DNA of 64,000 nucleotides from a virus (Duplodnaviria; Caudoviricetes): positions 1-64,000 of the IMG/VR virus record IMGVR_UViG_3300031519_000013. One strand, given 5' to 3'. The notes under the pieces are model-generated. The model did not search any database. It had not been told where the DNA came from and saw only the letters and a list, made by a program, of their open reading frames with translations. The translations under genes were made by a program, and so were the position numbers. Of this stretch, positions 3,626-49,061 are shown piece by piece; positions within the stretch are counted from its first letter, which is position 1, and every line of letters begins with the position of its first letter.

Positions 3626-3717
3626 TTAGGATACGGTTTCTTGCTTCCGTGTAAAGAGCAAGTGGTGCGCTACATCCGCTTAGTTTCCTAATTCTATTTA
3701 AAAATTAGGTGGCGAGC
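3624..3717 (+). ncRNA. Tandem-pseudoknot leader RNA (manA-motif-like) at the head of the glycan operon
   Basis: Two 34-nt units of identical geometry (3634-3667, 3681-3714) with compensatory changes in both stems. Confidence 0.6.
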
Positions 3718-3739
3718 ATATTACGAATTGAACCATAAA

Positions 3740-19371: not shown

Positions 19372-19421
19372 AGTCAGCAAGTTAAGAAACCAACACATTT
19401 CTTAACGCTTCGTAACACCTG

Positions 19422-19525
19422 TTAACCGAGACCTATTGGGTGTATAAAAACGTCTCTCATATCCCCGGCTGAGGGTGCTGGGGAAATAGTAACTCCACCA
19501 TTCCCTGATGGTCTTACTTTTTTTA
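19422..19525 (+). ncRNA. psbA 5' leader RNA, PhotoRC-II-motif-like
   Basis: GAGAC/GTCTC, CCCCGGC/GCTGGGG and CCAT/ATGG pairings directly upstream of psbA; name from established association. Confidence 0.6.
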
Positions 19526-25045: not shown

Positions 25046-25323
25046 CTGATGAAGAGCTGAGAGCACAGATTGAACTGTTGATTCGTGATGAAATTCAAGA
25101 GGTCATCAACTCCTATGTTGAAGAACAAAATAAAAGTTCTCCTGAGGGTGAACTTGGTTTCATCACTCCTGACGAACAGAAGGAGATGACAGTGAAGATT
25201 AAGAATGTAGAGATCGATAAACTCATGAAGGAGTATAAGCAGATTAAGAAGGAAGAGAAGTCAAATATATCTGAGATTAAGAAACTGGGTCTCGTAGACA
25301 AATTTGGCAATCCACTTGACTAA
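25042..25323 (+). CDS. Hypothetical protein
   Basis: ATGA-coupled ORF. Confidence 0.6.
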   Translation: MTDEELRAQIELLIRDEIQEVINSYVEEQNKSSPEGELGFITPDEQKEMTVKIKNVEIDKLMKEYKQIKKEEKSNISEIKKLGLVDKFGNPLD

Positions 25324-25350
25324 ATAAGAAATGAGGTCTATAATAGACCT
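25316..25350 (+). promoter_or_regulatory. Sigma70 promoter plus late promoter, with a palindrome over the -10 box
   Basis: TTGACT-17nt-TATAAT; CTAAATA at 25320-25326; AGGTCTA-TAA-TAGACCT. Confidence 0.75.
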
Positions 25351-25352
25351 AT

Positions 25353-25577
25353 CGTTCATCCGAGAGATCGGACGCAAGTAAGTCGCGGAACGGAGTCGTT
25401 CATCCCATGATTGAATTTCTTCTATATTCATCACTCAGTTGTTCTGATGCCGATAGCATTATGCTACGGATAAAGAGAAACGAAAATCTTAGCAATAAAG
25501 TTATGATTGAGTTAGTAGAAACCGTAAAGGAATCTACACCTGAGTGCTATTGGGACGCACACGATTGAAGGAACGGG
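25353..25577 (+). ncRNA. Tandem glutamine-II (Downstream-peptide) riboswitch-like element
   Basis: Two CGTTCA-stem-GACGCA...GGAACGG units, upstream of a YRG-motif peptide. Confidence 0.7.
25407..25568 (+). CDS. 53-aa protein encoded inside the riboswitch loop
   Basis: MIEFLLYSSLSCSDADSIMLRIKRNENLSNKVMIELVETVKESTPECYWDAHD; GGAG at 25392-25395. Confidence 0.65.
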   Translation: MIEFLLYSSLSCSDADSIMLRIKRNENLSNKVMIELVETVKESTPECYWDAHD

Positions 25578-25639
25578 AAAACACGGATCCTGCGAAAGCA
25601 GAGAAGGTTAATTTTCACCCAACTTTCAGGAGTAAATTC

Positions 25640-25783
25640 ATGACTACTATTACTTACAGAGGTCAGCAGTACGATAAAGAGGCGTACAAAGCCAGTGTGT
25701 TGGAGCAAGCAACGCAACAACGCAACCACAATCTAATGTATCGTGGTATTAAGATCGAACGTAAGTTCGCATCTAAGAGCTGA
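25640..25783 (+). CDS. DUF4278-like small protein
   Basis: AGGAG SD; MTTITYRGQQY...LMYRGIK with two YRG motifs. Confidence 0.75.
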   Translation: MTTITYRGQQYDKEAYKASVLEQATQQRNHNLMYRGIKIERKFASKS

Positions 25784-25790
25784 TTGTTAC

Positions 25791-25817
25791 GGGAGGTTTC
25801 ATAACCTCCCTTTTTTT
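25791..25817 (+). terminator. Rho-independent terminator
   Basis: GGGAGGTT/AACCTCCC stem plus T7. Confidence 0.85.
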
Positions 25818-48758: not shown

Positions 48759-49024
48759 AAAAAGTTAAGATTACTCCCGAAACTTATCAAAAGATGGAAG
48801 ATGAGTTCCGAGAAGAAGGACTTGCTTTTACTATTACCATTCCTACACAGGAAACGATTGATAAGTGGCAAAATGCTACTCCTATCCCTCAACCAGTAAG
48901 ACATAACGTTGATATGGTTGCTGATATGTGGGCAGAGCACAATAGGATAGAGGAAGAACGTAAATTACAACTTGAACTTAATTTATGCCCGTGTAGTCCA
49001 ATTGGCAGTAGACACGAAACTTAA
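48755..49024 (+). CDS. Hypothetical protein overlapping tRNA-Leu
   Basis: GTGA-coupled; 3' end runs 38 nt into the tRNA. Confidence 0.55.
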   Translation: MKKVKITPETYQKMEDEFREEGLAFTITIPTQETIDKWQNATPIPQPVRHNVDMVADMWAEHNRIEEERKLQLELNLCPCSPIGSRHET

Positions 49025-49061
49025 AATTTCGACAGTATCGGTTCGAGTCCGATCACGGGTA
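48987..49061 (+). tRNA. trnL: tRNA-Leu(TAA)
   Basis: GCCCGTG/CACGGGT acceptor stem, CGAAA-CTTAAAA-TTTCG anticodon arm, GGTTCGAGTCC T-arm, A73; short variable loop. Confidence 0.9.

Follow-up and report, generated by a model that had tools for sequence, protein, structure and literature searches.

How can two glutamine-riboswitch-like units and a complete reading frame share one short stretch of phage RNA, and which strands of that RNA pair with each other? The question is raised by positions 25316–25783 of a 64,000-nucleotide (nt) stretch of viral DNA, hereafter the window, which spans positions 1 to 64,000 of the IMG/VR record IMGVR_UViG_3300031519_000013 (Duplodnaviria; Caudoviricetes); all features described here lie on the plus strand. 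A preliminary description, made from the sequence alone, had listed two tandem aptamer-like units built from CGUUC and GAACG strands, a 53-codon open reading frame (ORF) in the hairpin loop of the second unit, and a downstream gene for a DUF4278-like peptide. All of the listed motifs were found in place, and the same layout is conserved in 156 distinct cyanophage loci, a recurrence far beyond chance. Covariation among these loci indicates an outer type-1 glutamine aptamer that carries a second, circularly permuted aptamer inside its helix P2, with P2 common to both and a gene enclosed by a hairpin of the inner aptamer. The reading as a whole, which adds to this nested twin an ON switch of the DUF4278 gene through an anti-Shine-Dalgarno helix and the burial of the embedded gene's start, is considered probable.

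The source of the window is a marine T4-like cyanomyovirus (cyanophage), and hundreds of phage records from Synechococcus and Prochlorococcus match the region. Relatives were collected by a protein-seeded search of IMG/VR, by a DNA pattern for the stretch where the two units meet, and from annotated phage genomes. Both aptamer halves were found in 193 phage loci, of which 156 are distinct at the RNA level. The window's own architecture, with a hairpin at the first position and a gene at the second, is seen in 101 loci; a gene occupies both positions in 25 loci and only the first, with a hairpin at the second, in 9; and 21 loci are compact twins of about 85–100 nt in total, with a hairpin at both positions and no embedded gene. 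When applied to 401 cyanobacterial genomes, the junction pattern returned 5 chance-like matches compared to 10 for a reversed-pattern control. No second copy was detected when the phage record was scanned for it, and the element is thus a single locus in its own genome.

Pairing of the four P1-type strands

The four P1-type strands were numbered 1–4 in order of their starts at 25353, 25388, 25397 and 25571. Strand 1 is CGUUC followed by an unpaired A (25353–25358), strand 2 is GGAACGG (25387–25393, with GAACG at 25388–25392), strand 3 is again CGUUC and A (25397–25402), and strand 4 is GAACG followed by G (25571–25576). The preliminary description had paired them side by side, as 1:2 and 3:4. 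This pairing did not survive comparison of the relatives, among which covariation keeps 1:4 and 2:3 and breaks 1:2 and 3:4. The last P1 pair differs from the consensus in 14 of the 156 distinct loci, and all of these retain five of five pairs in both 1:4 and 2:3; all 14 are mismatched in 1:2, and 13 are mismatched in 3:4 as well, the exception (L128) keeping a G-U pair. Twelve of the deviating loci read CGUUC / CAACG / CGUUG / GAACG in strand order, L128 reads CGUUC / AAACG / CGUUU / GAACG, and L102 reads CGUUU / CAACG / CGUUG / AAACG, the latter holding the one compensatory change (C-G to U-A) of the outer P1.

In an alignment of 82 sequences of the gp197 type, named for the embedded gene described below, the nested structure is 99.1% paired, and strand 1 pairs with 25571–25575 in 82 of 82. 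The 2:3 pair is G-C in 69 of these sequences, C-G in 13 and unpaired in none, and the tandem structure leaves 13 + 13 = 26 unpaired cells, each of which is paired in the nested structure. RNAalifold, run on the 21 compact relatives, independently gave 1:4, 2:3 and both hairpins.

The preliminary description had further proposed that AGUCG of the first unit pairs with CGAUU of the second. This was borne out, and the pairing proved to be the shared P2 helix: its arms (25381–25385 and 25562–25566) covary in a fixed register across about ten helix types, including AGUCG/CGACU, AGUCA/UGACU, GGAAGG/CCUUCC, GGACGG/CCGCCC, AGCCGACU/AGCCGACU and AGCCGACA/UGCCGACU. The joining segments point in the same direction. 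The motif AGUA is confined to the first joiner, where together with the CGCA core (25373–25380) it is invariant in alignments A1 and A2 and forms the 5′ half of the E-loop of the outer junction, and GAAG, the near-invariant 3′ half (25567–25570), is confined to the second, so that one type-1 E-loop arises only in the nested fold. As a separate observation on P2, the AGCCGACU/AGCCGACU type always carries two A-C mismatches (e.g. L123, L144, L147 and S-SSM7 L085) and the GGACGG/CCGCCC type carries one; protonated A+.C pairs or some non-canonical motif could account for them.

Two independent aptamers in tandem (1:2 and 3:4), acting in a pseudo-cooperative manner and with AGUCG:CGAUU merely a kissing contact, would be a familiar arrangement; 157 glutamine doublets have been classed as pseudo-cooperative (PMC9481103). 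Rfam moreover takes halves of some compact forms as single aptamers (36.7 bits in L096 and 35.3 bits in L123, with RF01704 hits on L190 and L160). The best scores of the glutamine-I family RF01739, on the other hand, come from spanning a whole twin, and nearest-neighbour energies favour the nested helices over the tandem ones (−20.5 vs. −14.4 kcal/mol). With the 14 variant loci and the distribution of the E-loop strands also speaking against it, the tandem arrangement is regarded as highly improbable.

Certain observations nevertheless weigh against the nested topology. All four P1 strands conform to the consensus in 142 of the 156 loci, and as the strands are identical there, both topologies are possible in 91% of the sequences. 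The single-sequence minimum free energy (MFE) fold prefers 1:2, and the inner junction is without an E-loop. The 13 C-G cells at 2:3 may furthermore descend from one event spread by recombination, for which reason only about three independent discriminating events were counted. When the state of the 2:3 pair was traced on a tree of the ORF interior, 10 changes were obtained; this figure was rejected as a count of independent events because 13 nt separate the two bases and the phage genomes are mosaic.

The identity of the four strands in most loci could also be taken as functional in itself. In such a strand-exchange switch, the toggle between tandem and nested pairing would be the regulatory event, for instance with 1:2 forming early and exposing the embedded start before a later nested fold hides it. 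The order of synthesis, in which strands 1, 2 and 3 are transcribed about 150 nt ahead of strand 4, and the closeness of the two folds in energy (constrained MFEs of −68.8 and −66.7 kcal/mol) would both suit a toggle, but 14 distinct loci retain mismatches that make 1:2 and 3:4 weaker, with nothing on the tandem side to compensate for them, and no sequence feature specific to the tandem state was found. Strand exchange as the basis of regulation is accordingly judged rather improbable, and the nested twin is preferred. The hairpin GAACG-GAGU-CGUUC (25388–25401) takes on another role in the nested twin than the one first given to it. It is present, as had been described, but not as a merely alternative fold that excludes the P1 helices; from the compensatory changes that keep 1:4 and 2:3 it follows that the hairpin is the constitutive helix of the inner aptamer.

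Riboswitch class and predicted ligand pocket

At the Rfam gathering cut-offs (35 bits for RF01739, glutamine-I, and 33 bits for RF01704, glutamine-II), a scan of the window returned no glutamine family, and a permissive scan gave 27.6 bits for RF01739 and 20.3 bits for RF01704, both as partial matches at 25350–25400. The window lies below the RF01739 threshold, with its first unit scored alone; the Rfam models cannot span an insertion of 143 nt. RF01739 does match whole compact relatives above its cut-off (L114 43.6, L203 42.9, L190 40.2, L160 38.4 and L198 37.6 bits), and the element is glutamine-riboswitch RNA. In these compact twins the model places P1 on strands 1 and 4 and P2 on AGU...ACU, with the inner unit as a 38-nt insertion in the P2 loop. 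When the loop was deleted from the window (25351–25407 joined through a tetraloop to 25551–25577), the remaining RNA matched a profile of the 21 compact twins from end to end with 58.6 bits, the best of 2000 shuffles reaching 2.7. The glutamine-II class suggested in the preliminary description was not upheld, given the sub-threshold RF01704 score and the absence from the element of a P2 hairpin with GGAACGG in its loop.

Most parts of the RF01739 model can be recognized in the window. P1 is formed by CGUUC/GAACG (25353–25357 with 25571–25575, 100% paired in the 82 sequences), and the unpaired A is followed by a P1a hairpin and then ACG(G/C)A (25358–25376); this hairpin, P1a-1, has the sequence UCCGA-GAGA-UCGGA (25359–25372) and shows changes on both sides in four of its five pairs. 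The CGCA-AGUA segment matches the consensus ACGgAAGUA, GAAG likewise aligns to the consensus, and the AAGUA and GAAG strands flank P2 at the sequence level with a predicted E-loop geometry. A short local P2 hairpin, as in the model, was not found; instead, the arms are separated by 176 nt and enclose the second core as well as the gene.

In the solved structures, the ligand is contacted by C1, C39, G40, G18 and the C19:G41 pair, and the C5:G36 pair is among the less conserved positions (PMC6698751). All of the pocket nucleotides named in that study are present and invariant in both cores of the phage element, and the P1 pair that varies among the phage loci corresponds to C5:G36. As no ligand-contacting nucleotide is missing from either core, each of them probably binds L-glutamine. 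The C of CGCA and the G following GAACG are both (nearly) invariant, and covariation is silent on their long-range pair.

The element combines traits of both known glutamine classes. With glutamine-I, as found in the leader of the Synechocystis gifB gene for IF17 (RF01739; PMC6212724), it shares P1 (CGUUC/GAACG), the bulged A, P1a, the ACGCAAGUA...GAAG E-loop and P2, as well as the position ahead of a DUF4278 gene and, next to the 3′ end of the aptamer, a short strand able to pair with the ribosome-binding site. It differs in that the phage P2 is a long-range helix, the "loop" of which (about 190 nt in the window) holds a permuted aptamer and a whole gene, in that the window falls under the Rfam cut-off, and in that the element, present in phages, was not detected in the 401 cyanobacterial genomes searched. 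Common to glutamine-II (RF01704; PMC6698751) and the phage element are the pocket nucleotides CGUUCA, CGC and GGAACGG and the association with YRG/DUF4278 genes. The phage RNA has no P2 hairpin around GGAACGG, however, and so not the pseudoknot topology. In its crystal form, the glutamine-II RNA is a domain-swapped dimer whose two molecules have helices in common, reminiscent of the fused phage twin (PMC6698751).

The gene enclosed by the inner aptamer

Strand 3 is followed by the 5′ arm of the inner hairpin P1a-2, UCCCA (25403–25407), the last base of which is the A of a start codon, and the 3′ arm, UGGGA (25551–25555), is followed by CGCA-CA-CGATT-GAAG-GAACGGG through 25577. The preliminary description had placed a whole ORF of 53 codons within this stem and had seen its last codons double as conserved aptamer sequence. 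Both points stand, and the ORF is a real gene (25407–25568; syn9 gp197, T4-GC 430, phrog_504) ending in WDAHD-stop. The long-range UCCCA/UGGGA helix is likewise part of the single-sequence MFE and centroid folds, and it is paired in 82 of 82 aligned sequences (100%), with nine G-U cells in the arms and with a compensatory change of the first pair from U-A to C-G in L159 and L194, which comes at the cost of an Asp-to-Gly substitution (Trp-Asp-Ala to Trp-Gly-Ala). Other gene-enclosing stems among the relatives are UCCUAUG/CAUAGGA, UCUAUGG/CCAUAGA, UCCUUA/UAAGGA and GAUUAUGG/CCAUAAUC.

The coding status of the ORF is apparent from the entropy at the three codon positions of its interior (0.90/0.46/1.30) and from a match of the 53-residue protein to phrog_504 (2.8e-27), and the gene is annotated as a coding sequence (CDS) in many phage genomes. 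AlphaFold2 models the protein as a two-helix hairpin with a predicted local distance difference test (pLDDT) score of 81. Towards the 3′ end, the coding signal gives way to that of the RNA: UGGGA together with the CGCA of the inner aptamer (25551–25559) encodes Trp-Asp-Ala with frozen third codon positions, and third-position entropy drops from 1.3 within the ORF to 0 in its last codons. This RNA segment remains conserved in S-CAM1, where it is not part of the ORF, which shows that the conservation here is due to the RNA and not to the protein.

The first hairpin can hold a gene in the same manner. The P1a-1 loop of syn9, S-CAM1, S-TIM61 and others contains the 66-residue gene gp196, enclosed by a stem that covaries (UCUCA/UGAGA in syn9; UCUUAUG/CAUAAGA in S-CAM1 and S-TIM61). 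By single-linkage clustering of BLAST matches, 153 of the 155 embedded proteins form one cluster across both loop positions, and exactly two cysteines, 34–36 residues apart, are found in 141 of the 153. On this sequence evidence the embedded genes of both loops are assigned to one two-cysteine (2-Cys) superfamily; the gp197 and gp196 families compared directly with hhalign gave a weak match (E 0.019, probability 2.4%). Searches of Pfam, PHROGs, the ESM Atlas and, with Foldseek, the PDB returned no function for the 53-residue protein.

It could be argued that the hairpin loops are simply permissive insertion sites in a compact phage genome, with gene and sensor uncoupled. Compact twins without any embedded gene do exist (30 of 156), with hairpin loops of 11 to 47 nt, and in phage Sf-CH5 a homing endonuclease gene has entered strand 3. 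Against this, the distance from CGUUCA to the AUG is 3–5 nt, which places the AUG within the stem, in 125 of the 126 cases for P1a-2 and in 32 of the 34 for P1a-1. Similarly, a GGAG Shine-Dalgarno motif, assembled from the last bases of strand 2 and the loop of the hairpin, accompanies embedded genes only (95 of 126 loci that have one, 0 of 30 that do not); in the window it lies at 25392–25395, the last GG of strand 2 being followed by AG. The membership of nearly all embedded proteins in one superfamily and the recovery of aptamer halves in 80 of 80 relatives found by protein search likewise speak for a coupled unit. Uncoupled passengers are thus thought unlikely.

Some further observations concern the annotation and the DNA of these loci. 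In Synechococcus phage Sf-CH5, the homing endonuclease gene divides strand 3 as GAGCGTT / endonuclease gene / CGTTCATCCC, with CGTT on both sides (L342:255–300, L091:480–515), and in this phage the strongly conserved DNA of the aptamer seems to act as a homing site. Two deposited annotations run across aptamer RNA, namely "gp197" of S-CAM1, a CDS starting from a GTG within the 3′ half of the aptamer (L089:672–896), and a GTG-extended start in Syn33 across the first aptamer (L093:426–665); both are probably mis-annotations.

Expression platform and proposed coupling of two genes

The gene downstream of the twin (25640–25783) encodes a 47-residue protein of the IF17-like DUF4278 family with a YRG motif, and is the presumed regulated output. 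The assignment made in the preliminary description agrees with a Pfam PF14105 match of 26.1 bits (25640–25780; gathering cut-off 25.3) and with phrog_5049. In most relatives the regulated gene instead encodes a 55-residue protein with an MNTL..IKKQI start and YRG near residue 35 (e.g. L088:702–869), which probably represents another IF17-like family.

In the MFE fold, the strand UUGAAGG (25565–25571) pairs with CUUUCAG (25623–25629), which runs into the GGAG Shine-Dalgarno sequence of the DUF4278 gene (25629–25632). UUGAAGG consists of the end of P2, the E-loop half GAAG with the stop codon UGA (25566–25568), and the first G of strand 4, and because it is thus part of P2, the E-loop and outer P1, the anti-Shine-Dalgarno helix and the outer aptamer are mutually exclusive. 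The helix covaries with the stop codon of the embedded gene: at the variable position, the A of a UAA stop is matched by U in 58 of 58 loci, and the G of a UGA stop by C in 37 loci and by U in 35. By nearest-neighbour energies the ligand-free fold lies about 6 kcal/mol below the nested aptamer fold, as expected for an ON switch whose folding depends on ligand and tertiary contacts. In cyanobacteria, both types of glutamine riboswitch are ON switches on DUF4278 genes, e.g. on the host gifB (PMC6212724). The covarying anti-Shine-Dalgarno helix suggests that the phage DUF4278 gene is under an ON switch as well.

Between the aptamer and CUUUCAG lies a variable structured spacer (25577–25622), to which no Rfam family matched. 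It holds a GNRA hairpin, CUGC-GAAA-GCAG (25590–25601), that covaries among relatives (CUCG/CGAG, CAUC/GAUG, ACCC/GGGU). The spacer flanks are conserved as ACGGAUC...GAAGGUUAAUUUUCACCC, and relatives that lack this long form carry a short GGA...UCC hairpin instead.

The observed part of the overall reading consists of the sequences, the covarying helices, the coding status of the embedded gene and the covariation of the anti-Shine-Dalgarno helix. From these we infer that glutamine is bound, that the two sites cooperate and in which direction each gene is regulated, in a mechanism that would run as follows. An early phage mRNA of about 470 nt would open with the twin glutamine aptamer. Its outer part would fold as a type-1 three-way junction from P1 CGUUC(25353):GAACG(25571), P1a-1, the AGUA/GAAG E-loop and P2 AGUCG(25381):CGAUU(25562), and the permuted inner part from P1 GAACG(25388):CGUUC(25397) and P1a-2 UCCCA(25403):UGGGA(25551), with P2 in common, so that the shared helix would couple both glutamine sites. 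With no glutamine bound, UUGAAGG would pair with CUUUCAG beside the Shine-Dalgarno sequence of the DUF4278 gene; folding of the outer aptamer would free that sequence, giving an ON switch as for the host gifB. The same folding would bury the start of the embedded gene, placing its GGAG in the hairpin loop of inner P1 and its AUG in the P1a-2 stem. Conversely, ribosomes crossing the embedded gene would have to unfold the sensor, its last five codons and stop being aptamer sequence.

From this anatomy it is plausible that translation of the embedded gene and aptamer folding, and with it nitrogen sensing, compete on one mRNA; a reciprocal effect on the embedded gene would follow from the same anatomy. 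On the opposite side of the balance, a ribosome terminating inside the anti-Shine-Dalgarno strand could itself open the downstream Shine-Dalgarno sequence and blur the reciprocal logic. A more far-reaching proposal, which we put forward tentatively and with some doubt, is a ribosome-gated nitrogen toggle with two outputs, in which cooperative glutamine binding would turn the 2-Cys gene off and the IF17-like gene on, translation would reset the sensor, and the 2-Cys proteins would be low-nitrogen phage effectors that evolved with the riboswitch.

The unit is bounded by a promoter and a terminator, which together enclose the transcription unit of about 470 nt. The promoter is a strong sigma-70-type sequence, TTGACT-17-TATAAT (25316–25344, 11 of 12 consensus matches), and an intrinsic terminator is predicted at 25791–25817. 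In 120 of the 156 relatives the −10 box ends 7–9 nt upstream of strand 1, and transcription should start at, or just ahead of, the first aptamer strand. The −10 box of the window lies inside a perfect palindrome, AGGTCTATAATAGACCT (25334–25350), which many relatives keep as GGTCTATAATAGACC; the palindrome may be a protein-binding site overlapping the promoter. Elsewhere in the window, the Rfam scan identified a PhotoRC-II RNA (77.6 bits, 19403–19497) and a wcaG RNA (65.9 bits, 3632–3723), and two tRNA genes are located at 1016–1087 and 48987–49061.

Functional RNA helices that enclose an ORF are known from group I introns with loop ORFs and from leader-peptide attenuators, where ribosome transit is set against folding; these are self-splicing introns or amino-acid attenuators and not ligand-binding aptamers. 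Unlike in the attenuators, the product embedded in the phage element is a conserved, folded 53-residue protein and not a sensor peptide. Tandem glycine and other dual-aptamer riboswitches (PMC9481103) resemble the phage element in coupling two sensors of the same ligand to a single downstream expression platform, for which the probable advantage is a sharper, more switch-like response. They differ from it in that one phage aptamer is nested and permuted in a helix of the other, with that helix shared, rather than placed side by side with it, and in the genes held by the hairpins.

In a 2022 review of tandem riboswitches, 157 glutamine doublets and 4 triplets are classed as pseudo-cooperative, with no mention of nesting or of embedded genes (PMC9481103), and the 2018 study of Klähn does not discuss phages. 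In cyanophage papers, glnA matches appear as Rfam annotations only; one of these is 99 nt long and probably represents a compact twin. We found no publication describing the nested, gene-embedding layout; an earlier published mention of the nested form may exist.

Aptamers are usually treated as compact non-coding leaders, and glutamine doublets as independent tandem units, and the phage element departs from both views. One of its aptamers is permuted and nested in a helix of the other, and genes are carried in aptamer hairpins with their start and stop codons built into the sensor. This layout, conserved in hundreds of abundant marine cyanophages, is missed by standard Rfam scans. It offers a natural and directly testable case of competition between ligand sensing and translation, and may be a way for glutamine to be sensed cooperatively. 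Phage infection would be tied by it to the nitrogen status of the host, with an IF17-like peptide and the family of small 2-Cys proteins as the links.

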